Assembly: GCA_036518395.1 (NCBI GenBank)
Contig: DATDNH010000094.1
Span: 7,366 to 71,365 of the forward strand
Length of the DNA stretch: 64,000 bases
Source: Candidatus Angelobacter sp.
GTDB lineage: Bacteria > Acidobacteriota > Terriglobia > Terriglobales > Acidobacteriaceae
Reading direction: 5' to 3'
Shown here: piece after piece, positions 1-18,003 of the stretch
Position numbering within the stretch: position 1 is the stretch's first letter
Layout: each line of letters starts with the position of its first letter
Notes under the pieces: generated by a model
Seen by the model: only the letters and a program-made list of their open reading frames with translations
The model's database searches: none
Told to the model about the DNA's origin: nothing
Translations under genes and position numbers: made by a program

Positions 1-1932
1 GTTACGCTTGAAACGCAGGTCAGCAATCCAGCCGCCCGCGACGCTCGCAAGACCGATTACCAGGACTATGCCCGGAGCGATGCCGTAAAGTGATATATCG
101 GTCCAAATCAAAACGCTTGCGCAAGTGAGAAAAGCAAAACTTATGACGAGCAACCAGTAAGCAGGCCTGGTCAGAAACGAGCGTGCGGCGCCGACATTTG
201 GTTGTTGCTGCTGAGAGGGACCTCTTGTTGCTACAAAAATGATGGCGGCAACTATGCCCGCCGGGATTGTCGCCATCCACCCTTGCTCAAACCCGAACAT
301 TTTATAAAGTGGATAGGCGATACTGGGCCCGAGCGCCAATGAAAGATAAAAGATGGAGAGTATGCGACCCCTCTTTTCGGCTGGAAACAAATCGCAGAGA
401 TGAGCCGGTCCAACCGCGCCGGGCACGAGCAGCACGCTGCCAAACAGCACGCTCGCATTGGAAAAGCGTTCTGGAAATTTGCGGTCTGCCAGATATCCAA
501 TTAGCGGAAGCACCAGTAAATACAAGATATAAATCGGGTCAGAAGACTGAAGATGATAGCGAGCGGCGATGGCCCCCCAATTTGAAATGGTGAAGCCGGT
601 CGCAAAATTAATGATAGTAAGCAATGTGAGTGACAGATAAGAGCGAGCTGCTCGCGGAGCGGCGACCACCGTTTGAGGACGAGGTGCAGCGATCTCGGCT
701 GGAGCGGGTTGTGCAATCGCGGGTTCAGGAGCGCTCTCCAGCTTTGCGGCGAAATCCGGCGTCCATGTGCCCTTCCGCGTTTCCGGCAGGGAAGGTGGTG
801 GCACAGGGGCGGGCGCTGGCGCTGCCGCTTGCGAGCCATATGAAGACTGGACAGGCGGAGATGCCGAAGATGCGGGCGGCTGCGACTCTTCCAAGACCGG
901 CGCTGCTTTGGACACGAAACGTTGTGGCGGCGCTGTGACTGGAGGTGGTTCCGCAATGGGCGGCTTTACCTCTTCAACAATTTCCGGCTGCGGTGGTTGA
1001 ACGACACTTGGGAGGGGAACTGGTGCAGGTGGCGGCGGTTCGGTGAGCGGTTTAGGAATTGCCCGGGCACTGGGCGCAAGCACCGTTGCCTGCATGGCGG
1101 CATCGGCAGCGGCCTCCGTGATCAACTCGGCGTGCTGCAATTCATCAAGCTCAGTCGCCATCTCCCGGGCTGAATACCGGTACTTGGGGTCCTTGGCCAA
1201 GCCTCTTGCCAATATCGCTTCTGCCTGCAACGGGCAGGGCTGCACAAACTGGCGCAACGGCGGCGGAGCGTCCATGAGAATTTTCTTGAGAATGGCAGCG
1301 GTATCTGCGCCCTCGAAGGGCAGATGATTCGACAAGAACTCGTAGAGCACGATGGCGCAGGAAAAAACGTCGCTGCGGCCATCGACGCGCGCTCCGTTCA
1401 ACTGCTCCGGAGACATGTAACTGACGGTGCCGACCATCAGTCCCGTTTTGGTCATAGTGTGGTCGGCAATGTGCGCCACGCCGAAATCAAGAATTTTGGG
1501 AGTGAGATCGGGAAGCAGAATGATGTTTGCCGGCTTTACATCGCGGTGCACAACACCTTGCTGGTGTGCGTAATCCAGGCCCCGGCACACGCCAGCCATG
1601 ATCTCGAGCTTTTTAGTGAAAACAATGGGACGGCGATCATGAATATATTTTTCCAGCGATTCTCCCGACAGGAATTCCATCACCAGGTAAGGGCTGCCCT
1701 GATGCTCGCCGGCGTCCACGACACTGACGATGTTCGGATGCTCAAGGCGGCCAACCACTTCAATTTCACGATGGAAACGCGAGACGAGGTCAGGACGGTC
1801 GGCAATCACCGAATTCATGAGCTTGAGCGCGAAAAGATGAGTTCGCCGGACGCGCATGTGACGCGCCTTGTACACCACGCCCATAGCGCCTGCGCCAATC
1901 TGCTCAACGATTTCGTAGTTGCCAATCTGCAT
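1..1932 (-). CDS. Hanks-type Ser/Thr protein kinase fused to an MFS-type transporter domain; C-terminus lies beyond the window start
   Basis: Not in the ORF track because there is no stop inside the window. My translation from ATG 1932 stays open to base 1 (644 codons), and no listed minus ORF here shares this frame. Kinase motifs GAGAMGVVYKA, HRDVKPANI, DFGVAH, SYMSPE. A roughly 150-aa Pro/Ala-rich linker follows. Then come TM helices with MFS motif-A-like GYLADRKFPER and PAEKRGRILSIFYLSLALG. Confidence 0.8.
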   Translation of the reverse strand, partial: MQIGNYEIVEQIGAGAMGVVYKARHMRVRRTHLFALKLMNSVIADRPDLVSRFHREIEVVGRLEHPNIVSVVDAGEHQGSPYLVMEFLSGESLEKYIHDRRPIVFTKKLEIMAGVCRGLDYAHQQGVVHRDVKPANIILLPDLTPKILDFGVAHIADHTMTKTGLMVGTVSYMSPEQLNGARVDGRSDVFSCAIVLYEFLSNHLPFEGADTAAILKKILMDAPPPLRQFVQPCPLQAEAILARGLAKDPKYRYSAREMATELDELQHAELITEAAADAAMQATVLAPSARAIPKPLTEPPPPAPVPLPSVVQPPQPEIVEEVKPPIAEPPPVTAPPQRFVSKAAPVLEESQPPASSASPPVQSSYGSQAAAPAPAPVPPPSLPETRKGTWTPDFAAKLESAPEPAIAQPAPAEIAAPRPQTVVAAPRAARSYLSLTLLTIINFATGFTISNWGAIAARYHLQSSDPIYILYLLVLPLIGYLADRKFPERFSNASVLFGSVLLVPGAVGPAHLCDLFPAEKRGRILSIFYLSLALGPSIAYPLYKMFGFEQGWMATIPAGIVAAIIFVATRGPSQQQQPNVGAARSFLTRPAYWLLVISFAFLTCASVLIWTDISLYGIAPGIVLVIGLASVAGGWIADLRFKRN

Positions 1933-2065
1933 GTGTTTTCGTCCCCACCGCTGACTCCACCCATCACCCGCAAAAGCGGCGGGCGGTGGAGACCCGGTAC
2001 GCAGTGGGCTCAGTAAATTCCGCGCCTTCAGCGCTCGAGTATTAAGGTGCCGCTTCGTCCTGCTC

Positions 2066-3448
2066 TTATTTTTTCGCTACATATTTGTCCAGCTTCAGCA
2101 CCCGGGCCGCTTCGGGCCAGGCCACGCCGCTGCTTTCATCCTGAACAATGCCGATTACGCCTTCCGGAGCGATGATCGGCGAGCCGAATACAGAACTGTC
2201 CACCAACTCTCCCAACACGATGCGGTCGCCGCTTCGCTTCGCCGGAATCACAATGAGTTCGGGATCGGCGGAACTGCTGCGGGCACCGCCTCGAAAACGG
2301 AATAGTGCCACCGATTCCCATTCCGTAGCATCGCTATCGGCCACGCGCAAGGAAGCAAAATTACGGCTGGAGTTCGCCACCTGAAGCAGCGCCAGGTCAG
2401 ATGAGCTGTCGCGTTTCTCCACAGAAATCTTTCGCGTTTTCCCGGAATCTTCGAGAGCCATAATCTTGCGTTCATCGCGATCCGGAGTCTTAAGCACCGC
2501 GAATTGTTTCCTGCTCAAGCGCAATGCTGTATCGGAATTCAACTCGTTCGATTTGAGCACAGAAGCCGAAGCCGGCCATAACCAAAGGTCGTAGCTGGCG
2601 GAATTCAACGAAAGGCGTTTGCTCTTGATGGCATCGGAGACATCGGGATTGAATTTCCAGGGCTCGAGTGCCTCTCTGGGAATCAAAACGAGATCAGGCG
2701 CAGTGGTAATGCCAACTCCAGACCATTGAACCGTAGTGCTCTTCCCCTGCCCGTCCCGCAATTCGTAGCGGGCGTATGCCAGCAGCAGTTGAGGCGTGTA
2801 CTGCTTCATGGTGTCATGGCGAAAACCGGAGGCCCAATTGCGGCCGCTGCTGACAGTAGAGCTGATCGCCTGAAGCGCTTTCTCCGCGCCATGCAAGACG
2901 GCCAGCGAGGCGCTCTTGGCCATCTCGCCGCCGGGGACGGTAAAGGGAAGAACATCCTCGTGCAGGTTGATTGCCACGTCGACATGATTTGACAGAAGCA
3001 GTACGGTGACGATCGGATTCACTCGCACCCTGGCGTAGGCCGTCCCGTCAATGGTTGTGTGACCATTTGCTATGGCCTGCTCGAGCGGGGAGATGGAATC
3101 GAGATCACGCAGGTAAACGGTAACGGGTAACGGATCAGGCAAAAGGGTTTTGTCGCCGGAGTGGATATCAAGCTTCTGTTGAACAGGCGCGGCATAGAGT
3201 GGCAGCCCGTTGATGCGCAACCCGGCGAGCACAATTTGCTCTACCGTGAGATCACGTTTGGCGCTGATGGACAAAGTAAGTCCCAGAACCAGCTTGCTTG
3301 TCGAATAACTCAGCAGTGTGGTCTTTACTACCTGGATTTGGACTTGCCCGGTGAGGTCGGGCTCGGCGTCATTCTGAAGGGGCTTTGCGAGCAGATTGCA
3401 GCAGAGGACAACAGCCAGGAACGCGATTAATTGCGATTTTACTACCAC
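2066..3448 (-). CDS. secreted hypothetical protein with a degenerate trypsin-like C-terminal region
   Basis: 460-aa ORF with a GTG start preceded by AAGGAG. Hydrophobic signal-like N-terminus (LIAFLAVVLCCNLLA). C-terminal DLALLQV and FGSPII resemble the Asp box and GxSGxP box of S1/HtrA proteases, but the catalytic Ser and His positions are not conserved. Confidence 0.65.
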   Translation of the reverse strand: MVVKSQLIAFLAVVLCCNLLAKPLQNDAEPDLTGQVQIQVVKTTLLSYSTSKLVLGLTLSISAKRDLTVEQIVLAGLRINGLPLYAAPVQQKLDIHSGDKTLLPDPLPVTVYLRDLDSISPLEQAIANGHTTIDGTAYARVRVNPIVTVLLLSNHVDVAINLHEDVLPFTVPGGEMAKSASLAVLHGAEKALQAISSTVSSGRNWASGFRHDTMKQYTPQLLLAYARYELRDGQGKSTTVQWSGVGITTAPDLVLIPREALEPWKFNPDVSDAIKSKRLSLNSASYDLWLWPASASVLKSNELNSDTALRLSRKQFAVLKTPDRDERKIMALEDSGKTRKISVEKRDSSSDLALLQVANSSRNFASLRVADSDATEWESVALFRFRGGARSSSADPELIVIPAKRSGDRIVLGELVDSSVFGSPIIAPEGVIGIVQDESSGVAWPEAARVLKLDKYVAKK

Positions 3449-3519
3449 AGATCTCCTTACTTACCCTTTGCCTCGTGGAAGACGCAGCCGAGGGCAGCTG
3501 CAGTCTGCTCCATTTGTTT

Positions 3520-4449
3520 TCATTTTTGATCGGGTTGAGGGATTTGTGGAGCTGCCGCGCTGAGTTCTTTTACCTTGCGATCGACATAGCGATCAAGCAT
3601 TTTGGGCAGCTCCTTGTTCATCCGGTTCATAAATTCGTCTTCGGCGGTTTTCATCTTTTCGTCCACCTGGTCGAGACGCTTATCGAATGAATTCAGCCTC
3701 TGGTCAAGCTGCGGCGTGAATTGCGCGACAGCGCTTTGCGCCTGACGGCGCATGTCATTCAGCTCGGCGCGGTTCTTATCAATCTGCTGGCTTTGGTAGA
3801 AGATTACGCCCAGCAGCACAGCCACCATAGCTACCAGCAGGTATACCAGGTTTCTAACAGAGTTGAGTTTTTGCTGAATCATTGCTTCATCCTCCCGGGC
3901 AGACAGGGCCGCAGTTGGTGGTTCATTGACGACGATGGGCGCAGTGGGCACTCCAGTTGTCGCCGGTTTTGGCTCGCTCTTATGGATTACTGTCTCTTTG
4001 TGGATCGCGGTCTCCGCCGAAGCTTGTTTTTCCTGCTCCGCGCGCGTAGCGATGCGGGTTGGAGCGTTAGCGGCCGCTGCGGCTGCCATTCCGCCCGGCA
4101 CAGTTGCAGCGTCGGGCGCGCTGAGCACCGTAGGAACACTGACGCTGGGCTGCTCAATGATTTGAAACTCGAATTCAGGACCATCCTTGCCCAGGCGGAA
4201 GCGATCGAGTTTGGTGAGCATGGCGTTGCTGACGCCGATTCCGTTTACGAACGTGCCGTTGGTGCTCTGATTGTCCGCCAGTCTCACGCGGTCGTTCTCA
4301 ATGGTCAGGATGGCGTGTTCGCGCGAGACCATGGGGTAGCGATCGGGAGGCAGAGTCACCTCGCAACCGGGATCGCGACCGATGCGGACGCGCGGTGTGG
4401 AGAGACGCCAGCGATTTTCAGTGCCGAGTAAATGCAATTCAACCAGCAT
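3520..4449 (-). CDS. FHA domain membrane protein (FHA - Ala/Pro linker - TM - extracytoplasmic coiled coil)
   Basis: N-terminal FHA signature RIGRDPGCEVTL...VSREHA...STNGTFVNG. One TM segment (LVYLLVAMVAVLLGVIFY). Charged helical C-terminus. Its start overlaps the upstream ABC gene by 11 nt. Confidence 0.85.
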   Translation of the reverse strand: MLVELHLLGTENRWRLSTPRVRIGRDPGCEVTLPPDRYPMVSREHAILTIENDRVRLADNQSTNGTFVNGIGVSNAMLTKLDRFRLGKDGPEFEFQIIEQPSVSVPTVLSAPDAATVPGGMAAAAAANAPTRIATRAEQEKQASAETAIHKETVIHKSEPKPATTGVPTAPIVVNEPPTAALSAREDEAMIQQKLNSVRNLVYLLVAMVAVLLGVIFYQSQQIDKNRAELNDMRRQAQSAVAQFTPQLDQRLNSFDKRLDQVDEKMKTAEDEFMNRMNKELPKMLDRYVDRKVKELSAAAPQIPQPDQK

Positions 4450-7267
4450 GCGAGGCTTTCTCCTTTCGCACCAGGGCTATAGCGATTGCCACACACATTA
4501 CCAGGGCAAAGATGCCCATGACTCCCAGATATTCAGGGAGAGCGGGCGATGAGTTGGGGGGACTTTCGTCGCCCGGTATCATACGCTTTTGCAGCGTCGT
4601 ACGCATAGTCACTGGATCGTCGGGATGGAAGGTGATGGAGACGCTGTTGAGCAGGGCATAGCTGTAAGGTTCACCATCGTGAATGTAGAGATCCGATAAG
4701 GATTCCAGGCCCCAGCGCGCGATCATCAACGGCGATAAACCGTCTCTGAAGGCGGGACTCATGGCGCGCTGCTGCAGTTCGCCAGGAAAGTCGACGATCC
4801 GGGGCGGGTTAGTCGCCGTGCTGACGTAAAAGGGATGGAGCACGGTAACGGGAATCAGCAGCCCGGCGAGCAGGAGCTGCGGGATCATGGTCAAGGGGAA
4901 GGCGTAGAGCGCTTTTTCGGCGCTGGAAGCGATGGCGGAAATCAGCAGTCCGATCAGGCCTCCCTGAAAACCCAGCAGCCATGTGATGCCCCAGGATGCC
5001 AGGAAATGATTTTCCTGTGTATCCATGATGGTCATCACGCCGACGAAGAGACCCGTCTGCAAACCCGTTACGACAGCCAGATATGCAAGTTTGGAGGCGA
5101 GATAGCTCGAGATCTTAAGTTCGCGCTGGCGCTCTCGCTTGTAGATGGCGGTCTCATCCACAATTTCTCGCACGGTTGCGGAACAGCCGAACCACAGCGC
5201 CACCAGAACCATCATGAAGAGAGATTTGGGTTCGTTTGGGCCATGCTTCATGAAACCCATGAGGATGGCGATTAGGGCCGGAGGAACCAGCAGCGCGGCC
5301 ACGTTTCCTTTGTCTTTTATTTTCAAAGTAAATTGCCGCGACAAAAGCGTGAAGAATTGGCGGATGGCAGAATGGCGAACTTTAACTTCTTTGGCCGGAG
5401 CTGCGGACGCTTTTGCCGTGATCTGCTGCGTCTCCTGCCCGATAGGATCGGTAATGTACTGCCTGCAGAGCGAAGAATCGCGATAGGCATTGGCCCAATG
5501 GTCCGGAGGTTGCTCATGCAGACGGTCAAAAACTTCGTGCGGCCGTTGTGCCTTGAAGTAGGGAAGCATCTCCTGACTGGGGCCGAAGAATGCCAGCTTG
5601 CCGCGCACCAGTACGGCCACTTTGTCGAGCAAGCTGAATGAGCCCAGCAGGTGAGTGTTGATCACGACTGTGGCGCCTTTGTTGGCGATTTCGCGGAAAA
5701 GCTCCATCAGCTTGGCTTCTGTGCGTGGGTCCTGGCCAGCCGTAGGTTCGTCGACAAATAAAATGCTGGGCTTGCTCAGCAACTCAATTCCCAGGCTCAC
5801 GCGTTTCCGCTGGCCGCCGCTGAGCTGGTAAATGCAGTTTTCCGCGCGCTCGCTCAGATCCAGGCTGCGCATGACATCGTTCACACGCACGCGGATCTCT
5901 TTGTCACTGTAATCGTCCGGCAGGCGAAGTTTGGCGGAGTAGAAGAGGCATTCGCGGACGGTCAGGCCACGATGCAGAATGTCATCCTGGGGCAGATATC
6001 CAATGAGGCTGCGCAAGACTGCCAGATATTCATACAAATTACGATCGTTGAGCAGCACCTTGCCCTGGCCGGCGGGACGAAAACCATTCAACGCATCCAT
6101 CAACGTGGACTTCCCCGCGCCCGAAGGTCCCAGCAGACCGACAAATTCGCAGGGATCAAGGATGAGTGAAATGTCGTCCAGAAGGCGCAGCGTTCGCCCG
6201 GTCTGAGAATCAGACACCTCGGCCCGCAGTTGTTGAGCAATCAGGCGAATGCGGGTGCCGTCCGCTGCCTGCTCGAACTGCTGCCCGTTAAAAACGAATT
6301 GCATTGCGCCCAGGCTGATGTGATCGCGCGTCTGCAGCACTTTGCGCGTAATGCGGACCCCGTTGACGAAGGTTCCGTTGCTGGAGTCCAAGTCAATCAG
6401 CTCAAATGTGCCGTTGCTCTTGTGGATTTCGGCGTGAAATGCCGAGACGGTCGGATGCTCCAGATGAATGGTGTTGGAAGGATTGCGTCCCAGCTTGATG
6501 ACCGGCTGATTCAGCTCGATTTCACTCAGCTTCAGGGTTCGCGGACGCGAATCGCGGAAGAGCAGAAGATAGCTCTCGCATGCGCCAAGCTGGACCAGAT
6601 CACCCTCTTCCAGCACCTTTGAAGTAATTCGCTCGCCATTGACGAAGGTTCCATTAAGCGATTTAAGATCTCGCAGGGTGGCGCGTCCATCGCTGTCAAG
6701 AGTCACTTCAGCGTGTTTTTCTGACACGGAAGAATGGTCAATGGCAAACACGCCTTCGCCAGGGGTTCTTCCCAAAATCAGGCAATCGTTTTCAAGAGGA
6801 ATGTCCTGCACAGCGTATTTGTCCAGGACAAGCTGAAAGCGGCAAGTTTGTGCCGGCAACTCTTCAGCGGGAGCAACGACGGTTTGTTTGCGCCGCGCAG
6901 CAACTGCCTGCGCCAGCACAGTACCGTGGCTGATTTCCGCTTCTTTTTGCGGCGGGGCCTCGGCTTCAAAAGCAAAAGTGTTGGCCTGATTCAGGCCAAA
7001 GCGGATGTGGTCACCGGGGCGCAGAAGCGCCGTTTGCACGCGGTGTCCGTTTACGTAAGTGCCGTTGGCCGAGCTGTCCTGCAATCGAAACTCGCCCGTG
7101 GATGAGCCTTGAATCGTGGCATGAAAACGGGAAACCTCTGAATCGTCCAACACCACCTGGTTCTGACCGGGAATGCGGCCGATCTTGCAGCTTTCGCCAA
7201 TGGGGTATCGCTTGCCCTTGGCGGCTCCGGTTTCGCCAACCAGCCACGCCTTGTGATCATCAGCCAT
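4439..7267 (-). CDS. ABC exporter (fused NBD + ABC-2 type permease) with three N-terminal FHA domains
   Basis: Three GR...S(R/E/A)xH...(A/L/S)NGT(Y/F)VNG FHA units in the first ~335 aa. Walker A GPSGAGKST, signature LSGGQRKRVSLG, Walker B ILFVDEPTAGQD. About 6 C-terminal TM helices. The architecture resembles mycobacterial Rv1747, which has two FHA domains. Confidence 0.9.
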   Translation of the reverse strand: MADDHKAWLVGETGAAKGKRYPIGESCKIGRIPGQNQVVLDDSEVSRFHATIQGSSTGEFRLQDSSANGTYVNGHRVQTALLRPGDHIRFGLNQANTFAFEAEAPPQKEAEISHGTVLAQAVAARRKQTVVAPAEELPAQTCRFQLVLDKYAVQDIPLENDCLILGRTPGEGVFAIDHSSVSEKHAEVTLDSDGRATLRDLKSLNGTFVNGERITSKVLEEGDLVQLGACESYLLLFRDSRPRTLKLSEIELNQPVIKLGRNPSNTIHLEHPTVSAFHAEIHKSNGTFELIDLDSSNGTFVNGVRITRKVLQTRDHISLGAMQFVFNGQQFEQAADGTRIRLIAQQLRAEVSDSQTGRTLRLLDDISLILDPCEFVGLLGPSGAGKSTLMDALNGFRPAGQGKVLLNDRNLYEYLAVLRSLIGYLPQDDILHRGLTVRECLFYSAKLRLPDDYSDKEIRVRVNDVMRSLDLSERAENCIYQLSGGQRKRVSLGIELLSKPSILFVDEPTAGQDPRTEAKLMELFREIANKGATVVINTHLLGSFSLLDKVAVLVRGKLAFFGPSQEMLPYFKAQRPHEVFDRLHEQPPDHWANAYRDSSLCRQYITDPIGQETQQITAKASAAPAKEVKVRHSAIRQFFTLLSRQFTLKIKDKGNVAALLVPPALIAILMGFMKHGPNEPKSLFMMVLVALWFGCSATVREIVDETAIYKRERQRELKISSYLASKLAYLAVVTGLQTGLFVGVMTIMDTQENHFLASWGITWLLGFQGGLIGLLISAIASSAEKALYAFPLTMIPQLLLAGLLIPVTVLHPFYVSTATNPPRIVDFPGELQQRAMSPAFRDGLSPLMIARWGLESLSDLYIHDGEPYSYALLNSVSITFHPDDPVTMRTTLQKRMIPGDESPPNSSPALPEYLGVMGIFALVMCVAIAIALVRKEKASHAG

Positions 7268-7291
7268 TTTGAGGGTCCGTTCTGTTAGCAG

Positions 7292-8731
7292 CTACGGCTT
7301 TTTTGACGTAGCAATCGCTAACAACAACTCATCTGTTGCTCCGGCTTTGCGCAGACGAACTTCAGTGGAATTATCCAGCGCAAAATCCACGCCTTTCTGT
7401 TTCACGAGTTCGGTCGTGCGCTTCGGCGTAACGCCTCCCTGTAGCAGCTTTTCAACGTCAGCCACGCTGAGCTGAGTGGATACGGCTGGTTTTGGGGAGA
7501 CGAGCTCGCCCTTTCCCATGATGAACAGGAACGGCTGCGGTGTGTAGGCTGCCATCACACCAATAACATCGACCGTCGCTCCCACAGCCGGGGGGTGACT
7601 CATCTGGGTTGGGATAAAAATCCGCACGTCAGGCTGATTCGCATTTCGGCTTTCCTCGGTGATGGCCCCATAAATCATGTCTTTGGTTGCCGAGACTACC
7701 TTTATGGAAAGCTTCATTCTGGAGGCGCCGCCCGCCTGTTTGGCCTGAATGGCTTGCCATACTTTTTCAGCCGCGTCTGTGTTCTGAGGCGACGCATCGC
7801 GATACTTCAGAACCAGTTCCCAGTCGCTGAATGAGAGCGTTGCGGGATCGCTCTGCTCCACGACAGCAACGGCAAGTTGAGCGGGACTCGGTTCAATGCG
7901 CGAATTCTTATTGAAGTCTGCCGGCGGCGTACTCTCGCTCGACGCTTCTTTTACGATTGCGTCCCAGCCATCATCACTGCCGTGATATTTGCGGTACTTC
8001 TCTTTGCCGTAAGTCTCCATGCCTTGGCTGGCCTGAGGGTTGCCTTGGGTCTGCGCGAGGTTCATGGCCTTGGCAATGTACCAGAAGCCAATTGGATCAA
8101 CTGGATCGGTTTCCAGATCGGCGACGGCGAGTTGATAGGTGTTAACCATGTCGCCGGGATTGATTTGAAGCGCCTTCTGATAATCGTCGCGAGCCGTGGC
8201 ATAGTCTTTCTTTTGAAGTGCACAAGAACCAAGAGCACCGTAAAAAATCTGCGCCGTCTGCGCGCGCAGTTTGTGAAATTCTGGTTCAGAAATACCCTCA
8301 GGCCCTTCCCAAGAGCCCAGAGCCTGGAGCCCCTTTTGCGCGTTGGTGCAAGTCTCGGGTTGAAATTCGTTTCCTGAACGCTGAATGTAAGTCACAACTG
8401 CGAGGGCGCGGACGTTGTAGGGGTGCAGCGCCAGAATGTGTTTCGCAATGTCCTCAACTTTGGCAGTGTTGCCATTTTGCTGGTATGCGGCCATCGCATG
8501 TTCCAGGGCATCAATCTTGACGACGCTGTCCGGATAGTTGCGGACGAAGGCCTCCAGGGCCGCACCCTTCTGCGCCGCATCCCTCATGTTCACGGCAGTC
8601 ATGTAGGCGTTGTATTCCACTGGATCCTTGATGACCTTTCGATTGCCGGCGCCTCTCTGGGCTAGAGGCAATGCAAGCGCAGTGGCCGCAATTGCCAGCA
8701 CCAGTGCCGATAAAGTGAGCCTGCGAAACAC
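7292..8731 (-). CDS. secreted TPR-repeat protein
   Basis: Signal peptide MFRRLTLSALVLAIAATALALPLAQ. Several TPR-like A/Y/L repeat units in the first ~230 aa. The C-terminal half has no recognisable family. Confidence 0.7.
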   Translation of the reverse strand: MFRRLTLSALVLAIAATALALPLAQRGAGNRKVIKDPVEYNAYMTAVNMRDAAQKGAALEAFVRNYPDSVVKIDALEHAMAAYQQNGNTAKVEDIAKHILALHPYNVRALAVVTYIQRSGNEFQPETCTNAQKGLQALGSWEGPEGISEPEFHKLRAQTAQIFYGALGSCALQKKDYATARDDYQKALQINPGDMVNTYQLAVADLETDPVDPIGFWYIAKAMNLAQTQGNPQASQGMETYGKEKYRKYHGSDDGWDAIVKEASSESTPPADFNKNSRIEPSPAQLAVAVVEQSDPATLSFSDWELVLKYRDASPQNTDAAEKVWQAIQAKQAGGASRMKLSIKVVSATKDMIYGAITEESRNANQPDVRIFIPTQMSHPPAVGATVDVIGVMAAYTPQPFLFIMGKGELVSPKPAVSTQLSVADVEKLLQGGVTPKRTTELVKQKGVDFALDNSTEVRLRKAGATDELLLAIATSKKP

Positions 8732-8751
8732 TTTCGTCTTCCTGCCCTCTC

Positions 8752-10602
8752 CTATTTCTTTTCCAGCTCTTCCTCAGTCTTTTGGGCCCTGTGCGCCCGG
8801 TCCAAACCGGCGCGCGCCTCGGAATTATTGCGGTCCAGGCGCAAAGCGTGCTGGAAATCAGCGATGGCGGCCGCGTACTTGCCATCGTCCAGTTTCTGGT
8901 TTCCTAGCTTGATCAGGGTGTTTGCCTGGGATCGCGCTAGATTAACATTTGTTTGGCTCCTCGTAGCACCGGAATTCTTTACGCCGCCATTGCTCTTGGC
9001 TGAACTATCGGAGGCTTGAGGCATTGTGTTGTTGTGTGTTGAATCAACTGAACTGGTGGAATTCCCCGATGCGGGAGTTACAGTATTTGCCGTGGTTTCT
9101 GACACGACGATGTTGTTCTCTACGCTGGAAACTCCACTCACTGCGCGTGCTAGGTTTTCGGCCTCTTCTTTGTCTCCGGGCAGGGGAACGTTGCCGGAAA
9201 GAGTTACAGCATCAGAATTCACGGTTACAGTGATGTTCTGTGCTTTGCCTTGAAGCTGGGGCGAGGATTGCAGTTTTCCGGCGATCAAATCGTGAAGCGC
9301 CACATCATGTTCCTGCAGTGCGGCGTTGCGGCGCGCGTTCACTTTGAGCAGCATGTAGCCAATCGCGGCGCAAACAACCACCACGATCGTGACCATCGCG
9401 ATCCGGAGCCGCTTACCTTTGTCGTGAAGCGTGATAGGCGCGAAGGCCCCGGTGCGAATGGCTGGTGCGGGCGCTTCAACTGGTTTGGGTGATTCGATTT
9501 TTGCTGGCGCAGGCTTTGCAGGAGTAATCGCGGGCGAGCGTTGTGCCGCTGCCGCCGCGACACCGGACGCGAGCGCTGCAGTCGGCTGATCGTCAGTTCG
9601 GGCTGTGAATACCTTGGTGGCAGCAAAGGCACCGGTGCCATTTCCCGCGAAGGCAGCAGGATTGCGCAAGGCAGCGAGCATTTCATCGGCCGTCTGAAAT
9701 CGCCGCTCGCGGCGTTTCTCCAGCGCCTTCATCAATACGGCTGAGACCGCTTCCGGAATGCGCAAATCCGGCCGCAGCTCGTGCGGTGGCCGAGGCACAG
9801 TCTGCAAATGGTGCATACACATTCCCAGCGGAGTATCGGATTCGAACGGCAGTTTTCCCGTCAGCATCTCATACAGCACTATGCCCAGTGAGTAAATATC
9901 AGCGCGCCCGTCCAGGTTTTCGCTGAGATGGCCTTCTGCCTGCTCCGGCGACATATATTCAGGCGTACCAATGATCACGCCAGTCTTCGTGGCCGTATAC
10001 CCACCCTGAAGTACACCTTCCCTGGCTTTAGCTATGCCAAAGTCCAATACCTTGGCAGTTTCATTTCCGGAAGAATCTCGTGTGATGAAAATGTTGTCCG
10101 GCTTGATGTCGCGATGGACGATCCCAAGCTTGTGCGCCGCGCTCAGCGCGGAGGCTACCTGCGCGCCCAGCTTCAGCGAACGCTCGACTGAAAGCGGTCC
10201 CTGTTCCTTGATCAGCTTGCGCAGATCATCGCCTTCGAGAAATTCCATGGCGATAAACGGGCGCCCATCCTCGATCTCGTCCAGATCTTCAACCCAAACA
10301 GCGTTCTCATGGCGCAAGCGCCGGGCTATTGCCGCCTCATGGCGAAAGCGGCGAAGAAAATCCTCGTCGCGGGAAAACTTGGCAAAGACCACCTTGACGG
10401 CCCGCAACTCATCCAAAAGGCGGTGCCTGGCGCGATACACAGCCGCCATGCCGCCGGCTCCAATCCATTCCAGAATGATGTATTTGTTACCGACAATCAT
10501 TCCCGGTTCCAGTTCCCGAATCTGGCGCAATGGGGTAGTGTCGTTGGGACAAACCTGCAACTGGTCAGCAAAAAGATGCTGGCATGTGGTGCAGTGTTTC
10601 AC
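8752..10602 (-). CDS. Ser/Thr protein kinase with CxxC N-terminus, TM segment, BON domain and C-terminal TPR
   Basis: N-terminal CTTCQHLF..VCPND. Kinase motifs GAGGMAAVYRA, HRDIKPDNIF, DFGIAKA, PEYMSPEQ. TM segment IAMVTIVVVVCAAIGYMLL. BON-like ITVTVNSDAVTLSGNVPLPGDKEEAENLARAVSGVSSVENNIVV. TPR-like tail. Confidence 0.9.
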   Translation of the reverse strand: MKHCTTCQHLFADQLQVCPNDTTPLRQIRELEPGMIVGNKYIILEWIGAGGMAAVYRARHRLLDELRAVKVVFAKFSRDEDFLRRFRHEAAIARRLRHENAVWVEDLDEIEDGRPFIAMEFLEGDDLRKLIKEQGPLSVERSLKLGAQVASALSAAHKLGIVHRDIKPDNIFITRDSSGNETAKVLDFGIAKAREGVLQGGYTATKTGVIIGTPEYMSPEQAEGHLSENLDGRADIYSLGIVLYEMLTGKLPFESDTPLGMCMHHLQTVPRPPHELRPDLRIPEAVSAVLMKALEKRRERRFQTADEMLAALRNPAAFAGNGTGAFAATKVFTARTDDQPTAALASGVAAAAAQRSPAITPAKPAPAKIESPKPVEAPAPAIRTGAFAPITLHDKGKRLRIAMVTIVVVVCAAIGYMLLKVNARRNAALQEHDVALHDLIAGKLQSSPQLQGKAQNITVTVNSDAVTLSGNVPLPGDKEEAENLARAVSGVSSVENNIVVSETTANTVTPASGNSTSSVDSTHNNTMPQASDSSAKSNGGVKNSGATRSQTNVNLARSQANTLIKLGNQKLDDGKYAAAIADFQHALRLDRNNSEARAGLDRAHRAQKTEEELEKK

Positions 10603-10759
10603 CTGCCGCTCCAGCCGCCGTAGGGGTAGTTCTGCCTGATAGTTGATTTCACCGGGACAGCACTTATTGAGGTGCTTTGCTGGTCATAATACTTCGGAAA
10701 TGATGAGAAACAAAGGGCAAAGTGCGTTCAGCGAGCGGCAAAGAACGGCAAAAATCAAG

Positions 10760-10787
10760 GTACAGGCCACAGGCAACAGGCAACAGG
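10760..10787. repeat. heptamer tandem array (gtacagg ccacagg caacagg caacagg)
   Basis: Read directly from the sequence. Four contiguous 7-nt units in the kinase/DinB divergent spacer. Confidence 0.85.
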
Positions 10788-10877
10788 AAAACTCCAGCAC
10801 CACGCTTGCTGTTTTCGTTGAACCGACTCTCCCGCAAACCGATATAATTGCCGGGAAATCTTTAGAAGGTGATTCTA

Positions 10878-11417
10878 ATGACCCAGCCAATTCAACCCGA
10901 TCAAGCTAGTTTTCTGTTGCATACGATTCTGCCCCTGTTAGAGAGAGAACATCGCACTACCAAAGCGGTAGTCGAGGCGGTTCCTACTTCGAAGTGGGAT
11001 TACCGTTGCGACCCGAATTCCAGAACAGCCCTGGATCTCGCGTGGCATATCGTGGCCGCTGAGAAGCGTTTCCTGGAAGGCGTTGTCAACGGACAATTCA
11101 ACTTCGATCCCATTCACCGGCCCGAATCAGTCCAGACTTCAACGGATATAGGACGCTGGTATGAAGAGATGTTCCAGTCAGTTTTTGCTCGACTGCAAAA
11201 ACTCTCAGGTGAGCAACTGATCAGGTCCGTCGATTTTCGGGGAATGTTTCAACAACCGGCAGTGATGTATTGCCTGCTGGCGCTGAATCATACAATTCAT
11301 CACCGCGGCCAGCTTTCAACTTATCTGCGGCCCTGCGGCGCAAAGGTGCCCGCCATTTATGGCGAGAGCTACGACTCCGCGGAAGCGCGAAAAGCCCAGC
11401 AGGCAAAGAGTGCGTGA
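10878..11417 (+). CDS. DinB-family protein
   Basis: Motifs LDLAWHIVAAEKRF and LNHTIHHRGQLSTYLR are typical of the DinB/YfiT four-helix metal-binding family. I prefer ATG 10878 (GAAGG upstream) over GTG 10869. Confidence 0.8.
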   Translation: MTQPIQPDQASFLLHTILPLLEREHRTTKAVVEAVPTSKWDYRCDPNSRTALDLAWHIVAAEKRFLEGVVNGQFNFDPIHRPESVQTSTDIGRWYEEMFQSVFARLQKLSGEQLIRSVDFRGMFQQPAVMYCLLALNHTIHHRGQLSTYLRPCGAKVPAIYGESYDSAEARKAQQAKSA

Positions 11418-11419
11418 AA

Positions 11420-11447
11420 AACAGGGAATAGGGAACAGATAAGACCT
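11420..11447. repeat. degenerate heptamer array (aacaggg aataggg aacagat aagacct)
   Basis: Read directly from the sequence. Related to the CAACAGG unit. Lies just after the DinB stop. Confidence 0.6.
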
Positions 11448-11464
11448 TTAGCCTTTTGATCAGA

Positions 11465-11503
11465 AATCAAACCAAAAACCACACCCCGCGCCGCAGCGCG
11501 GGG
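11465..11503 (-). terminator. rho-independent terminator of the small K/D/Q-rich gene
   Basis: ccccgcgc-cgca-gcgcgggg 8-bp GC stem. On the minus strand it is followed by TGTGGTTTTTGGTTTGATTT. Confidence 0.8.
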
Positions 11504-11526
11504 CGCGTGTCGTCTAACCGGTGAAA

Positions 11527-11877
11527 CTATCCTTTCCTGTGCCCTCGGCGGTAGGCGCGGCGGTCGGACTTGATGTCCTTGCGGTCGTGCTTCAGGTCGG
11601 CCTTTTGCTTTTTCAGCTTTTCCCGATCTTGTTTAAGTTGGGCTTTGTCGGCCTGAATCTGCGCTTTGCTGGCATGGTTTGCGCGATCGGCGGCCAGCTT
11701 TTGCTTGTCCTGGTCAACGATCTGCTCCTGCTGTTTGATTTCCTGCCTGTCCTGCTGAATGTCCTGCTTGTCTTTCTGGATGTCATTCTGGCCAGTCGGG
11801 GTGTTGGTCGAACCAGTCTGGGCCAAAGCTGGCGAACAGACGAGCGCCGTCGCCAAAATCAAAGTAAGTTTGTGCAT
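11527..11877 (-). CDS. small secreted heptad-repeat K/D/Q-rich protein
   Basis: Signal peptide MHKLTLILATALVCSPALAQ, followed by about 11 consecutive 7-aa units, each containing D(K/R) (IQKDKQD IQQDRQE ... KHDRKDI). A good terminator lies downstream. Confidence 0.6.
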   Translation of the reverse strand: MHKLTLILATALVCSPALAQTGSTNTPTGQNDIQKDKQDIQQDRQEIKQQEQIVDQDKQKLAADRANHASKAQIQADKAQLKQDREKLKKQKADLKHDRKDIKSDRRAYRRGHRKG

Positions 11878-12030
11878 AGTTTTCCCGTTCCCCTGAAAGG
11901 GGCTCCTTCAGGGGAAGTGAACCCTGTATTTCCAGAATAGTTGCTGGCTAAAAACAGTATTTAGTACTTAGCAATACTCGGACCTGCGATTTATAGAATG
12001 ATGCAAGTTGGATAAAGTGCGAAACACAGC

Positions 12031-13914
12031 ATGAAATCCTGGCAAGACTTGATTATCGGGAGACCGCTGGCCAGCTCGCAGGAACGAGCTGAGCAGATTG
12101 GGCCGGTACATGGCATTCCCATCTTCGGGCTGGATGCGCTCAGCTCGGCTGGATACGGTCCAGAAGCGGCTTTGACCATCCTGATTCCGCTGGGGTTATT
12201 GGGACTTAACTATGCCGTGCCGATCACTGCCAGCATTGTGGTCCTGTTGGCAATTGTCTACTTCTCTTATCGGCAGACGATCGGCGCCTATCCCGGTGGC
12301 GGCGGATCTTACACTGTCGCCCGGGAAAATCTGGGTGAGTCGGCCAGCCTGCTCGCGGCAGCGGCCCTGATGATTGACTACATACTGACGGTAGCGGTTG
12401 GAATTTCAGCAGGCGTGGGTGCTCTGGTTTCGGCTTTTCCCGGACTGCAACCGCATACGCTGTCGCTGTGCCTGGGAATTCTGATATTGATTGCCCTGAT
12501 TAACCTTCGTGGGCTACGCGAAGCCGGCGCGATCTTTATGCTGCCAACGTTCCTGTTTGTGGGATCGTTGTTACTCACAATTATTTTGGGGCTGGTGAAA
12601 TCAGTCTTGCACGCAGGCCATCCATCACCGGTAGTTGCACCCCACCCTCTTCATGCCACCGTAGGCGCAGCAACGATTTGGCTGGTGCTGCAAAGCTTTT
12701 CCAGTGGCTGTACGGCCATGACAGGAGTGGAAGCAGTAAGCAACGGTGTACGCGCCTTCCGCGAGCCGCGAGTCAAAAACGCCAAAATCACTCTTACTGT
12801 AATTATCGTGATCCTCATGGTGCTGCTCCTGGGAATCGCAATTCTGGTCAAGGTCTATTCGATTGGCGCAACCGATCCCAACCAGCCCGGTTATGAAAGC
12901 GTGCTATCGCAATTGCTTGCGGCCGTGACCGGCAAAGGTATTTTTTATTACGTCTCCATTGCTTCGATTCTTCTGGTGCTGTCACTCTCGGCCAACACTG
13001 CCTTCGCCGACTTCCCACGGCTCTGCCAGACGATTGCCCGTAACGGCTATCTGCCTAAATCCTTCGCTTCACGTGGAAGGCGGCTGGTTTTTTCGCAGGG
13101 AATTTATGCGCTCACGTTTGTGGCCGGAGTGTTGTTGATTGTTTTCGGCGGCGTCACGGACCGGCTCATTCCTCTGTATGCCATCGGAGCATTTCTCGCT
13201 TTTACTTTGTCCCAGGCAGGCATGGTGGCGCACTGGAAGAGGACCAAAGGCCGCCATTACCTCAGCATGTTCCTTAATGGATTAGGCGCTCTCACGACCG
13301 CTATCACAGTCCTAGTCGTTCTGGTAGCGAAGTTTGTCGAAGGCGCCTGGATCACTCTGGCTATGATTCCCCTGCTCTTTTTCATCATGAAGGCGGTACA
13401 TCGGCAGTACCAGTGGATGGAAAAAGACATTGCGCTGAACAAGCCGCTGGACCTCACAAATCTGCACAAACCGATTGTGATTGTGCCGGTAGATGGATGG
13501 AGCCGCATCGTTCAAAAGGCGCTGCGCTTTGCTTTACTCATATCGTCTGAGGTGCAGGCCGTCCACATCCACACGGAAGAAAGTCCATCCCATCTTGCAG
13601 CGCAGTGGAAGGCGCTGGTAGAAGCACCGGCCAAAGCTGCTGGCTCGCCAGTTCCTGAACTCAAGGTTATAAATTCACCGTATCGCTACATTCTGAATCC
13701 TATTCTCGAATACGTCACGAAGGAGGCAAAAAAGCATCCAGAGTGTCATATCGCGGTCATTATCCCGGAAACGATCCTGAACCGCTGGTACAACTATTTT
13801 CTGCACAACCAGCGGGCAACATTGCTGAAGGCCATGCTTTACTTTGCGGACAACCCTCAGATTGTAGTCACCAATGTGCCATGGTATTTCGGAAAAGAGA
13901 AATCTCGTTACTGA
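12031..13914 (+). CDS. APC-superfamily permease with a C-terminal cytoplasmic domain
   Basis: 627 aa with about 12 TM helices. The N-terminus (GIPIFGLDALSSAGYGPEA) is typical of amino acid/polyamine/cation APC permeases. Soluble tail of about 170 aa. Confidence 0.8.
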   Translation: MKSWQDLIIGRPLASSQERAEQIGPVHGIPIFGLDALSSAGYGPEAALTILIPLGLLGLNYAVPITASIVVLLAIVYFSYRQTIGAYPGGGGSYTVARENLGESASLLAAAALMIDYILTVAVGISAGVGALVSAFPGLQPHTLSLCLGILILIALINLRGLREAGAIFMLPTFLFVGSLLLTIILGLVKSVLHAGHPSPVVAPHPLHATVGAATIWLVLQSFSSGCTAMTGVEAVSNGVRAFREPRVKNAKITLTVIIVILMVLLLGIAILVKVYSIGATDPNQPGYESVLSQLLAAVTGKGIFYYVSIASILLVLSLSANTAFADFPRLCQTIARNGYLPKSFASRGRRLVFSQGIYALTFVAGVLLIVFGGVTDRLIPLYAIGAFLAFTLSQAGMVAHWKRTKGRHYLSMFLNGLGALTTAITVLVVLVAKFVEGAWITLAMIPLLFFIMKAVHRQYQWMEKDIALNKPLDLTNLHKPIVIVPVDGWSRIVQKALRFALLISSEVQAVHIHTEESPSHLAAQWKALVEAPAKAAGSPVPELKVINSPYRYILNPILEYVTKEAKKHPECHIAVIIPETILNRWYNYFLHNQRATLLKAMLYFADNPQIVVTNVPWYFGKEKSRY

Positions 13915-13954
13915 ATGCCGCATGCCCTGACTGATCAATAAGGATAGGCGTCCC

Positions 13955-14722
13955 TCATCCCCTGGCAAAATGTAAGAGAGCAAAGATATAGATCCAGAGC
14001 ACGGCCATAAAATGCCAGTACCACCCGGTCACATCTACGGCAATGCGCTGGGATTCGAGCTTCATTCGCACCCAGCTTCCTAGAAGCGTGTAGACCAACG
14101 CCAGCAATCCTCCCAGGAGGTGCAGTGCGTGGAGTCCGGTAAGAAGATAAAAGAATGAACTGCTGGGATATGAAGCAATGTAGATACCTTGATGTCGGAG
14201 AGAGTTCCACACCAGCAACTGTCCCCCCAGAAAGCCAAAGCCAAGCAGCACCGTCAAACTGAGCCACGGCAGATCAGTGTGGAATTTGGGTGGAAGAATG
14301 CCGAGAGTGACGAACTCGGCTTTCCTCAGCAGGCCTCTGCGCGCCAGCTCAAGCGTGACGCTGCTCAGAACGAGCACGAAAGTATTGATGAACAGCAGCC
14401 GATAAGGAAGCGTGAGCGGATGCCAGTCTGCGATGGCCACATGGGTGTGAGGGTCCCAACGTCCCGTGCCCTGGCGCCAGATGTATACCACGCTCAAACC
14501 TGCGAACAGCATTGTTACCGAGATGATTCCGGCCATCATGCCAATGCGAAAACGGCGCAGGCGCTCCCGGCTGGAAAGAAAATCGTCGCGGCGAAATGGC
14601 TCTCCCTCGTCGCCGCCGCCGTAGCCACGCCGGAAGGGAATTTTTCCCGGCCCGCCGCCTCCAAGCTTCGGCTTCTTTTCCCGTTCAACGTGTTCAGTGA
14701 CTGGGGACATATCAGTACACAT
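13955..14722 (-). CDS. coxC: cytochrome c oxidase subunit III
   Basis: Motifs HALHLLGGLLAL and WYWHFMAVLWIYIFALL. Follows coxA on the same strand. Confidence 0.85.
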   Translation of the reverse strand: MCTDMSPVTEHVEREKKPKLGGGGPGKIPFRRGYGGGDEGEPFRRDDFLSSRERLRRFRIGMMAGIISVTMLFAGLSVVYIWRQGTGRWDPHTHVAIADWHPLTLPYRLLFINTFVLVLSSVTLELARRGLLRKAEFVTLGILPPKFHTDLPWLSLTVLLGFGFLGGQLLVWNSLRHQGIYIASYPSSSFFYLLTGLHALHLLGGLLALVYTLLGSWVRMKLESQRIAVDVTGWYWHFMAVLWIYIFALLHFARG

Positions 14723-14827
14723 CCTCCGACAAAGCGCTTTTACAGCCTGTCCTGAGATGGTCCCGCCCTGGCGGGAGAGTCGAAGTATGTTCGATGACCG
14801 GAGGCATAACTACTTTGATGATCGGGT

Positions 14828-16555: not shown

Positions 16556-16560
16556 TCAGC

Positions 16561-17355
16561 TCATTCCGTAACGCTTTGGCGTAACTTCAACCATTCCTTG
16601 AACTCTTGCTCGCTCACAACTTTTACCGTTGCACGCATGCGGTAATGGCCCAGACCGCAGAGCTGCGAGCAGGCAATCTCAAATGTCCCTGTGTGTAACG
16701 GCCTGAGATAAGCATGGATAGACATACCGGGAACCGCATCCTGCTTGAAGCGCATCGCTGGGATGAAAACGCTGTGGATCACATCCTGCGCGCGCAAGGT
16801 CAGATCCACGTCACGATTCACGGGAAGCACCAGGGACGCAGAGACAATATCGTCCTTGCCTGCCGGATCATCGGGGTCAATTCCCAGGGGATTGCCTTCA
16901 TTTGGTTTGGCGAACTTCACTGCGTCCGTTCGCCCCCATCTGCCATCGGGGCCGGGATAGCGAAAATACCATTGAAACTGAGCGCCGGTCACCTCCACCT
17001 GAACAGGATCGGTTGCAGCAGGATGAATTTTAATTTCCGACCATACACGCTCGCCGGTAATGTTGAACCAGAAGAAAAGGCACGCAACTAAGACCGTCCA
17101 ACTGATCTCAAAGCGCCAGTTTCCCCGAGAGTAAATTACAGGGCGCTTTGATCGAGCGCGAAAGATGGAAAATGCCAGCAACAACTGACCGGCAACGAAG
17201 AGCCCGCCCAGCACCCACAGCGCAGTTGAAAATTGACGATCGAGAACAGCGCCATGCAGCGCCACAACAGCAGGGAACCACCATGGATGAACAAAAAAAA
17301 GATAAACACTGATGAGAGTGATCAGGAGCAGCGCAAGCAGGAGGGCGAGAGCCAT
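16561..17355 (-). CDS. coxB: cytochrome c oxidase subunit II (CuA type)
   Basis: Two N-terminal TM helices. CuA site CSQLCGLGHYRM. Confidence 0.9.
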   Translation of the reverse strand: MALALLLALLLITLISVYLFFVHPWWFPAVVALHGAVLDRQFSTALWVLGGLFVAGQLLLAFSIFRARSKRPVIYSRGNWRFEISWTVLVACLFFWFNITGERVWSEIKIHPAATDPVQVEVTGAQFQWYFRYPGPDGRWGRTDAVKFAKPNEGNPLGIDPDDPAGKDDIVSASLVLPVNRDVDLTLRAQDVIHSVFIPAMRFKQDAVPGMSIHAYLRPLHTGTFEIACSQLCGLGHYRMRATVKVVSEQEFKEWLKLRQSVTE

Positions 17356-17361
17356 TTTAGA

Positions 17362-17403: not shown

Positions 17404-17410
17404 CCAGCGG

Positions 17411-17986: not shown

Positions 17987-18003
17987 AGCAAAACCAAAAC
18001 CTT

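Follow-up and report, generated by a model that had tools for sequence, protein, structure and literature searches.

What would a bacterium do with Ser/Thr kinases, FHA domains, an ABC transporter and secreted proteins encoded side by side on one strand? The question is raised by the first 10.6 kb of a 64-kb stretch of DNA (hereafter, the window) from a metagenome-assembled genome (MAG) of Candidatus Angelobacter, a member of the Acidobacteriaceae. Mapping of the open reading frames (ORFs) gave five complete minus-strand ORFs and a sixth frame open at the left edge, which we call g6 to g1 in the order of transcription, and it confirmed the positions of the six genes and the spacing of -11 to 133 nt that a preliminary description of the window had given. 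Judging by analogy, the locus on balance probably encodes an ABCG-type exporter under phospho-regulation, in a module that elaborates on the mycobacterial pair PknF/Rv1747. In the best-supported reading, the core machine consists of the half-transporter g4, its coupled partner g3 and, in most Acidobacteriaceae, the pseudo-S1-protease g2, while g5 enters the best explanation as a clade-specific periplasmic TPR accessory. This reading builds on the domains, the fold classes, intact catalytic and phosphothreonine (pThr) motifs, a dead protease site and the linkage of the genes.

The gene around which this reading turns is g4. Its product carries three FHA domains (FHA1, ~aa 7-102; FHA2, aa 142-239; FHA3, aa 256-326), followed by a nucleotide-binding domain (NBD, aa 342-570) and a transmembrane domain (TMD, aa 634-941), and the Walker A (aa 380), signature (aa 482) and Walker B (aa 502) motifs are all intact. 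Pfam profiles identified the three FHA domains (5.6e-55, 184.1 bits against a cut-off of 20.7), ABC_tran (3e-27, 96.4 bits) and ABC2_membrane (3e-18, 66.4 bits); TIGR00955 matched at 2.3e-59, yet under its subfamily cut-off. An AlphaFold2 (AF2) model, for which 30 homologues served as input (pLDDT 80), aligned by Foldseek with complete ABCG2, ABCG1, ABCG25 and ABCG5/G8 (E 1e-28, TM 0.78, TM(target) 0.74-0.80, ~635 columns). With its NBD before its TMD, these motifs and this fold, g4 belongs to the ABCG/White-type (type V, ABC-2) half-transporters and presumably works as a homodimer. Members of this fold class export lipids, sterols and hydrophobic small molecules, and Rv1747 has been assigned to the same class.

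The Arg, Ser and Asn residues that contact pThr are present in all four FHA domains of the cluster, three in g4 and one in g3, and across 31 homologues they are invariant in FHA1 and FHA3 of g4. The FHA domains of both proteins are therefore predicted to bind phosphothreonine. Between FHA1 and FHA2 of g4 lies an Ala/Pro-rich linker of variable composition (pLDDT <50), in which Thr129 (codon 6881-6883) is conserved in 27 of the 31 homologues. The stretch around Thr116 exists in 18 homologues, of which 15 retain the residue; both threonines are candidate phospho-acceptors. Many FHA-ABC homologues also begin with a CxxC...CxxC zinc ribbon (alignment consensus; PF13240 in P0237), which is missing from g4.

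These features match what is known of the mycobacterial system, in which PknF, encoded in the same operon, phosphorylates Rv1747 at Thr-150 and Thr-208 (PMC3138270). Both transporters are ABCG/White-type half-transporters with N-terminal FHA domains and a disordered linker containing Thr candidates, and both are accompanied by a Hanks-type kinase in the operon; one relative of the Angelobacter locus (L010) even has a short tail-anchored kinase. In g4, as in Rv1747, FHA precedes the NBD and the linker contains Thr, and kinase genes lie on the same strand, g6 two upstream and g1 two downstream. The likening of the exporter to Rv1747 in the preliminary description is thus borne out by the ABCG-type half-transporter fold and by the conserved Thr in a disordered inter-FHA linker.

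g3 starts 11 nt before g4 ends, as had been described, which suggests translational coupling. The FHA domain of g3 (4.9e-15, 56.1 bits against 20.7) is followed by a transmembrane (TM) segment and a periplasmic part consisting of a ~90-residue coiled coil, and its C-terminal 120 aa gave coiled-coil-type noise only when compared with Pfam. A g3 homologue stands directly 3' of the FHA-ABC gene, with an overlap or a gap of at most 8 nt, in L005, L010, L012, L052, L053, L055 and L056, which suggests translational coupling of the two genes in all the relatives that were examined. Proteins of the FhaB/FipA (Rv0019c) and YscD types resemble g3 in placing a cytoplasmic FHA domain before a single TM segment, and g3 matched NF049868 FhaB (5.5e-8) and Yop-YscD_cpl (1.5e-11), in both cases through the FHA domain only and under the equivalog cut-off. 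However, YscD has ring-building domains where g3 has its coiled coil, and the genomic partner of g3 is an ABC transporter, in contrast to the cell-division or type III secretion system genes that accompany the FhaB and YscD types.

Profile matches and catalytic motifs identify both g6 and g1 as Hanks-type Ser/Thr kinases. In g6, Pkinase (2e-42, 145.8 bits against a cut-off of 31.7) and BON (4e-12) were above threshold. The protein begins with a CxxC...C segment and continues with the kinase domain (aa 43-308), a TM segment (~aa 401-420) and a periplasmic BON domain (aa 435-501); the motifs IGAGGMAAVY, AVKVV, HRDIKPDN, DFG and MSPE are intact, and Thr residues are present in the activation loop. 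Because the N-terminus is kept from residue 1 at 42-47% in the kinases of related loci, the GTG start of g6 is supported. The segment encoded at this start (window 10500-10602) resembles a zinc ribbon and is itself conserved from residue 1 in related kinases. In another Angelobacter MAG the g6 orthologue (L012:2529-4390) is split into a 487-aa ORF and a stretch of C-terminal homology in a different frame, so that the gene is either a pseudogene or interrupted by a frameshift error of the MAG.

The kinase domain of g1 scored higher (2.4e-51, 175.1 bits against the same cut-off), and its motifs IGAGAMGVVY, ALKLM, HRDVKPAN, DFG and MSPE are likewise intact. The preliminary description had listed g1 as a kinase-MFS fusion at 1-1932, but the window edge cuts the gene, and further TM segments and a WD40 domain lie beyond the left edge. 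At full length (L001:1874-5266) the protein has 1130 aa and comprises, in order, the kinase, a Pro-rich linker, an MFS-like multi-TM domain, one further TM segment and a C-terminal WD40 beta-propeller (4.8e-66). The membrane part contains a motif-A-like sequence, GYLADRKF, and 12-13 hydrophobic segments of ambiguous topology; hydropathy and the positive-inside rule favour a periplasmic location for the propeller, although this assignment is ambiguous. All the FHA (four), Pkinase (two), BON, ABC_tran and ABC2_membrane segments named in the preliminary description passed their HMM thresholds. Its TPR and MFS calls fared less evenly: the TPR of g5 stood, whereas that of g6, a single weak repeat at aa 560-593 (TPR_1, 19.9 bits against 27.8), and MFS_1 on the window fragment of g1 (31.1 bits against 33.4) were sub-threshold, an MFS_1 hit being listed among the precomputed matches of the full protein.

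The MFS-WD40 portion sets g1 apart from its relatives. The nearest relatives of the MFS-like part were four weak matches to Spinster-like MFS permeases (26% identity, E ~1e-5), in a search so insensitive that it did not recover the query itself and does not prove uniqueness. A metagenome scan with the MFS-WD40 region returned one irrelevant WD40 match, and no MFS/WD40 homologue of g1 was found in 50 related loci. In L010 the orthologue of the g1 kinase (L010:5897-6976, 74% identical) is a tail-anchored protein of 359 aa without MFS or WD40. Given this orthologue and the lack of any relative found, we therefore suggest that the MFS-WD40 portion is a recent, lineage-specific acquisition.

The AF2 model of g2 (pLDDT 78.6, pTM 0.77) has an N-terminal beta-sandwich (aa 36-166), a helical segment and a C-terminal domain of the chymotrypsin/HtrA fold (~aa 221-445). 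Its match to Trypsin_2 was sub-threshold (22.5 bits against 27.6). The best Foldseek matches were the trypsin-like domain of IgA1 protease, HtrA1, HtrA3 and the S1C domain of RsgI9 (3e-7 to 4e-6), and comparison with HtrA1, HtrA3, DegS and DegP gave TM(target) values of 0.6-0.68 and the double beta-barrel typical of these proteins. The catalytic triad is missing: alignments of 18 and 29 members contain no invariant His, the Asp of 'DLALL' is not conserved, and in the family alignment an aromatic residue (Phe, Tyr or Trp) occupies the nucleophile position, inside an invariant x-G-S-P motif (FGSP). An active protease was rejected because the His/Asp/Ser triad is absent even though the fold is present, and we conclude from the model and the alignments that g2 is a predicted catalytically dead pseudo-protease. 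The preliminary description, which called the C-terminus protease-like yet apparently dead, had read it correctly.

No Pfam, NCBIfam or PADLOC model matched the g2 family above threshold, and the N-terminal domain had no match in Pfam beyond coiled-coil noise; an exhaustive HMM search placed the family in 383 clusters at 50% identity. A canonical lipobox is absent from g2, and by reading of the alignment its relatives have signal peptidase I type sites of the form Ala-x-Ala or Ala-Gln. One member (P0180, L050:850-4038) has 1062 aa, with the g2-like region at residues 56-481 followed by ~580 extra residues, and a precomputed Trypsin_2 hit is listed for it. The contigs that carry P0180 and P0150, both distant members of the family, are too short to show their neighbouring genes. 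The HtrA/S1C proteases share the double-barrel fold of the C-terminal half of g2, but g2 has no PDZ domain and no triad, and its N-terminal beta-sandwich is unique. Another parallel is the non-catalytic S1C-like sensor RsgI9 of Clostridium thermocellum (PDB 7sjy), which like g2 is extracytoplasmic in a signalling context; the S1C domain of RsgI9 is an anti-sigma ectodomain, whereas g2 is a free secreted protein.

The product of g5 has a signal-peptide-like N-terminus and one TPR_1 repeat just over threshold (28.8 bits against 27.8). Its C-terminal 280 aa (aa 200-479) had no Pfam match even at E<=1, and its homologues occur only in the Angelobacter-clade loci L005, L011 and L012.

The cluster extends further than the six genes first described. 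In the L001 assembly a seventh co-directional gene starts 23 nt past the end of g1, which brings the unit to seven genes or more. The sequence available for this gene covers its first 77 aa (L001:5290-5520), comprising a signal peptide and a Cys motif, GSLGSCYFHSAIAAIA, and this piece is 74% identical to an orthologue in L005. The L005 protein (L005:11469-12470) matched Peptidase_C2 (calpain) with 59 bits against a cut-off of 23.8 and retains all three catalytic motifs, GSCYFHS (Cys), SHAYT (His) and RNPWG (Asn); further orthologues are L012:11139-12215 and L010:6983-8173. Through its L005 orthologue, which is apparently active, the seventh gene can be assigned as a putative secreted calpain-type (C2) peptidase. 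We know of essentially no function that has been assigned to bacterial calpain-like peptidases.

The cluster begins at a divergent intergenic region, presumed to be the promoter region of the operon (Table 1). From g6 to g1 the gaps are 20, 24, -11, 71 and 133 nt, and no coding-strand terminator-like hairpin was found within any intergenic gap of the cluster; spacing and absence of such sites both support an operon. A scan of window 1-12500 for the sigma-70 consensus gave 0 sites compared with 5.5 +/- 2.6 in shuffled sequence, a result that is uninformative for Acidobacteria. Zero sites would fit either non-canonical promoter usage in Acidobacteria or depletion inside coding sequence. The exact g2 protein is present in the Candidatus Angelobacter MAG and in two independent SRA assemblies, and the whole arrangement was seen at 100% identity in two independent SRA assemblies. 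Because of this recurrence, and because order and strand are kept in relatives, the arrangement is not due to chance.

Table 1. Coordinates of the cluster, of the g4 linker and of the region upstream of g6 in the window
Feature	Position	Strand	Description	Basis
g6	8752..10602	-	Hanks-type Ser/Thr kinase, 616 aa	Pfam, motif reading
g5	7292..8731	-	Secreted/periplasmic TPR protein, 479 aa	Pfam
g4	4439..7267	-	ABCG-type half-transporter, 942 aa, three N-terminal FHA domains	Pfam, AF2, Foldseek
FHA1-FHA2 linker of g4	6848..6952	-	aa 106-140, predicted disordered	pLDDT, alignment
g3	3520..4449	-	FHA, disordered linker, single TM segment, periplasmic coiled coil, 309 aa	Pfam
g2	2066..3448	-	Secreted 460-aa protein, predicted pseudo-protease	AF2, Foldseek, alignment
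g1	1..1932	-	N-terminal 644 of 1130 aa: kinase, Pro-rich linker, MFS-like start	Pfam
Divergent intergenic region	10603..10868	.	266 nt, between g6 and the plus-strand DinB-like gene	ORF map
DinB-like ORF	10869-11417	+	Neighbour upstream of g6	ORF map

The conservation of the neighbourhood was examined in 40 loci anchored on g2 homologues, one genome per species, all of them Acidobacteriaceae MAGs (Angelobacter, Terracidiphilus and unnamed genera); 20 of these are fully flanked, with at least 9 kb on each side of g2, and neighbours were identified by tblastn with the window proteins. An FHA-ABC gene lies near g2, ~2-4 kb away, in 14 of the 20 fully flanked loci (24/40 overall). Next in frequency are the C2 peptidase and a kinase, each in 8 of 20 (15/40 and 12/40 overall, respectively), then g3 (7/20; 12/40), a PP2C phosphatase (5/20; 8/40) and g5 (1/20; 2/40). 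All-against-all clustering of the ORFs of 49 loci ranked the neighbours in the same way: FHA-ABC was found in 32, the C2 peptidase in 19, g3 in 14, kinases in 12 (+3), PP2C in 10 and an extracytoplasmic function (ECF) sigma factor in 9. g5 occurs in 4 loci in total. FHA-ABC genes are few per genome and lie within ~4 kb of g2 in 70% of species, and the linkage is therefore far beyond chance, which we infer from these frequencies and not from a computed statistic. The clustering also brought out two families for which there is no Pfam assignment, one of ~890 aa in 7 loci and one of ~415 aa in 6 loci next to the C2 peptidase (L006:3371-6043 and L006:1878-3062; also L005:1-2452, L008:19614-21338 and L008:18069-19310); neither has a homologue in the window.

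The Angelobacter clade, in which g2 is 62-72% identical, retains g6-g5-g4-g3-g2-(kinase)-C2 peptidase as a co-directional series. In L005 and L012 no gene separates g2 from the C2 peptidase, and in L010 the tail-anchored g1-type kinase lies there. Terracidiphilus-type loci (g2 ~30% identical) contain the same families with order and strand shuffled. Loci anchored on g4 instead of g2 gave a consistent picture of the pair: the FHA/TM gene is directly downstream in 4 of 4, with an overlap or at most 5 nt, and g2 follows in two, one of which is the cultured Granulicella rosea, where the order is PP2C-ABC-FHA/TM-g2 with 4-nt overlaps between ABC, FHA/TM and g2. In a third, the distant L056, two g6-like kinases and an M48 peptidase come directly after the ABC-FHA/TM pair, and one of the four holds the pair alone. 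We conclude that conservation is graded and does not extend to a six-gene unit; the stable core is ABC plus FHA/TM, usually with the pseudo-protease. The neighbourhood foreseen in the preliminary description therefore holds for this core and not as a fixed set of six genes. Absence of conservation in relatives, which that description had named as a ground for refuting it, was not what the loci showed.

How might such a module work? By analogy with PknF/Rv1747, from which we infer the phosphorylation, the direction of its effect, the contacts and the cargo, envelope cues would activate the kinases g6, which has periplasmic BON and TPR parts, and g1, which has MFS-like and WD40 parts. The kinases would phosphorylate themselves and Thr129 and Thr116 in the FHA1-FHA2 linker of g4, and the FHA domains of g4 and g3 would bind those phosphothreonines. 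Binding would activate or cluster the transporter and lead to the export or flopping of a hydrophobic, lipid-like substrate, and g2 would serve as a non-catalytic periplasmic binding or docking partner. A lipid-like substrate is suggested by the fold class of g4 (ABCG) and by the BON domain of the sensor kinase g6; BON domains bind lipid. A PP2C phosphatase would reset the system; relatives encode it within the module, whereas in the Angelobacter genome its gene would lie elsewhere or be lacking. The PP2C that accompanies the module elsewhere had been overlooked in the preliminary description, and it is absent from the window.

Compared with PknF/Rv1747, the module has additional parts. Rv1747 has two FHA domains to the three of g4, and the Angelobacter host is diderm. 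The FHA-TM-coiled-coil partner, the pseudo-protease, the calpain-type peptidase and, in relatives, PP2C all go beyond the mycobacterial pair, as do two kinases with BON/TPR and MFS-like/WD40 parts. Full-text searches of the open-access literature found no description of this gene combination, in agreement with the preliminary description, although this is absence of evidence only. We conclude that the central logic is already known from mycobacteria and that the module itself is an uncharacterised elaboration of PknF/Rv1747.

Several observations weigh against a phospho-regulated exporter of this composition. About 1/4 of the g2 homologues are without any partner nearby, and kinases are within 10 kb in only the 8 of 20 fully flanked loci given above, so that kinase control may be in trans or facultative. 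FHA2 of g4 is degenerate in ~1/3 of the 31 homologues. PP2C, the C2 peptidase and the other accessory families have no homologue elsewhere in the 64-kb window, and for PP2C this absence counts against the proposed cycle. g5 and the BON/TPR tail of g6 occur in the Angelobacter clade only, and the MFS-WD40 part in a single lineage; these parts may lie outside the machine. Finally, no outer-membrane component was found, and the envelope-spanning complex put forward in the preliminary description is speculation.

In a second reading, only ABC plus FHA/TM, with or without g2, is a stable unit, and local genome history accounts for the presence of the kinases, the TPR protein and the peptidase beside it. 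Acidobacteria encode many Hanks kinases, and those of the cluster would then act mainly on other targets. In its favour are the kinases near g2 in fewer than half of the fully flanked loci, g5 in its four loci, MFS-WD40 in one lineage, and the shuffling of order and strand in Terracidiphilus. In addition, deletion of pknF in M. tuberculosis is reported to give no growth phenotype, other kinases substituting (PMC3138270). However, the two kinase types belong to distinct lineages, and each turns up with the module on its own, including in genomes where g2 is only ~30% identical: g6-like kinases are found near it in L003, L008, L024, L035 and L056, the last with two after the pair, and g1-like kinases in L006, L010, L026 and L029, the g6 type, with its N-terminal CxxC segment, matching at 42-47% and the g1 type at 44-45%. 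This independent recurrence also upholds the tie of both kinase types to the module that had been proposed earlier. Moreover, gaps of 20-24 nt join g6, g5 and g4, and the order from g6 to g2 persists in relatives with a g2 that is 62-67% identical. We therefore give this reading a low probability.

It is conceivable that the ABC cycle drives something other than export. FHA-gated ATP hydrolysis by g4 could be transmitted through the coiled coil of g3 to g2, which would then activate or restrain the calpain-type peptidase, resulting in regulated periplasmic proteolysis. FtsEX-EnvC, with its dead LytM regulator, is a precedent for such transmission, and it too combines an ABC ATPase, a periplasmic pseudo-enzyme and an active secreted hydrolase encoded together, along with a periplasmic coiled coil. 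The parts are at hand: g2 has a protease fold without the triad, g3 provides the TM segment and the periplasmic coiled coil, only FHA-ABC is a more frequent neighbour in the 49 loci than the apparently active C2 peptidase, and the S1C domain of RsgI9 (7sjy) shows that a protease fold can serve in an anti-sigma-factor ectodomain. FtsEX-EnvC nevertheless differs from the Angelobacter locus in the fold class of its ABC protein, in having a LytM rather than an S1 protease pseudo-enzyme, and in having no layer of phospho-regulation. The type V ABCG fold of g4 is not that of MacB/FtsX, and its known members move lipids and small hydrophobic molecules; many loci also have ABC and g2 without a C2 peptidase within 10 kb. 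Mechanotransmission of this kind is in our view unlikely. Its more specific form, in which the trio would be a phosphothreonine-gated transmembrane actuator without any transport, the Hanks kinases reading the envelope through BON, TPR and WD40 parts and the dead adaptor switching the secreted calpain on and off, seems quite unlikely.

A phospho-regulated exporter places the transporter downstream of the kinases; the reverse order is found in the TagQRST-PpkA-PppA-Fha1 system, the threonine-phosphorylation pathway of the Pseudomonas aeruginosa H1 type VI secretion system (T6SS). In a cascade of that type the ABC protein and the periplasmic proteins would sense upstream of the kinases, and the output, for example an ECF sigma factor or another machine, would lie elsewhere. 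The parts lists are similar, each including a membrane Hanks kinase with a periplasmic domain, PP2C (here in relatives), an FHA protein, an ABC complex and periplasmic accessories, and the ECF sigma gene of nine loci could be such an output. But its recurrence is limited to closely syntenic Terracidiphilus loci, and no T6SS or other output machine is present in any locus. The TagQRST ABC protein is LolCDE/MacB-like rather than ABCG, and the periplasmic proteins are unrelated. Furthermore, FHA is fused to the transporter here, as in Rv1747, which argues for the transporter as target. Such a cascade is improbable, and membership in a T6SS phosphorylation pathway was rejected, the pathway serving only as an analogy, since T6SS genes are absent from the window and the related loci and the ABC fold is ABCG, not MacB-like.

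A cluster for maturation and export of a peptide or bacteriocin, suggested solely by an ABC exporter beside two protease-fold proteins, is highly improbable, given that gaps of at most 133 nt hold no precursor-peptide ORF, that the fold is ABCG and not that of peptidase-containing type IV exporters, that g2 is predicted to be catalytically dead, and that PADLOC gave generic matches only and NCBIfam no bacteriocin-type match above its curated cut-off. An anti-phage defence system was also considered and rejected: PADLOC returned only generic kinase (PD-T4-6, mad6) and ABC-ATPase matches, and g2, g3, g5 and the C2 peptidase had no match in it.

Beyond the cluster, window 10869-26181 appears ordinary by reading of the translations, with DinB-like, amino-acid-permease-like, PaaI-like thioesterase and MiaB genes. 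The same reading places cytochrome c oxidase subunits III/I/II at 13955-17355, PdxT/PdxS at 17411-19067, and a PadR regulator with a 907-aa FtsX-like permease, typical of Acidobacteria, at 19707-22789. Rfam and tRNA scans of the whole 64 kb gave no match.

The Acidobacteriaceae are among the most abundant soil bacteria, and their envelope biology is almost wholly uncharacterised. To our knowledge, PknF/Rv1747 of M. tuberculosis is the only kinase/FHA-ABC pair that has been studied; the Rv1747 system is required for growth in vivo, and what it transports continues to be debated. The locus described here indicates that this regulatory design extends to diderm soil bacteria, where it has fixed partners, the FHA-TM protein and the pseudo-proteases, and frequent extras, namely PP2C, a secreted peptidase of the calpain type and one or two sensor kinases. 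Were the trio to prove an actuator instead of an exporter, it would represent an FtsEX-EnvC-like logic built from unrelated parts and a first role for bacterial calpain-type peptidases. Since Granulicella rosea, which is in culture, has the module, it is open to genetic and biochemical study, and work in this organism could reveal the cargo of FHA-ABCG transporters and how phosphothreonine signalling gates an ABC transporter. The module also places two orphan protein families in a functional setting for the first time.

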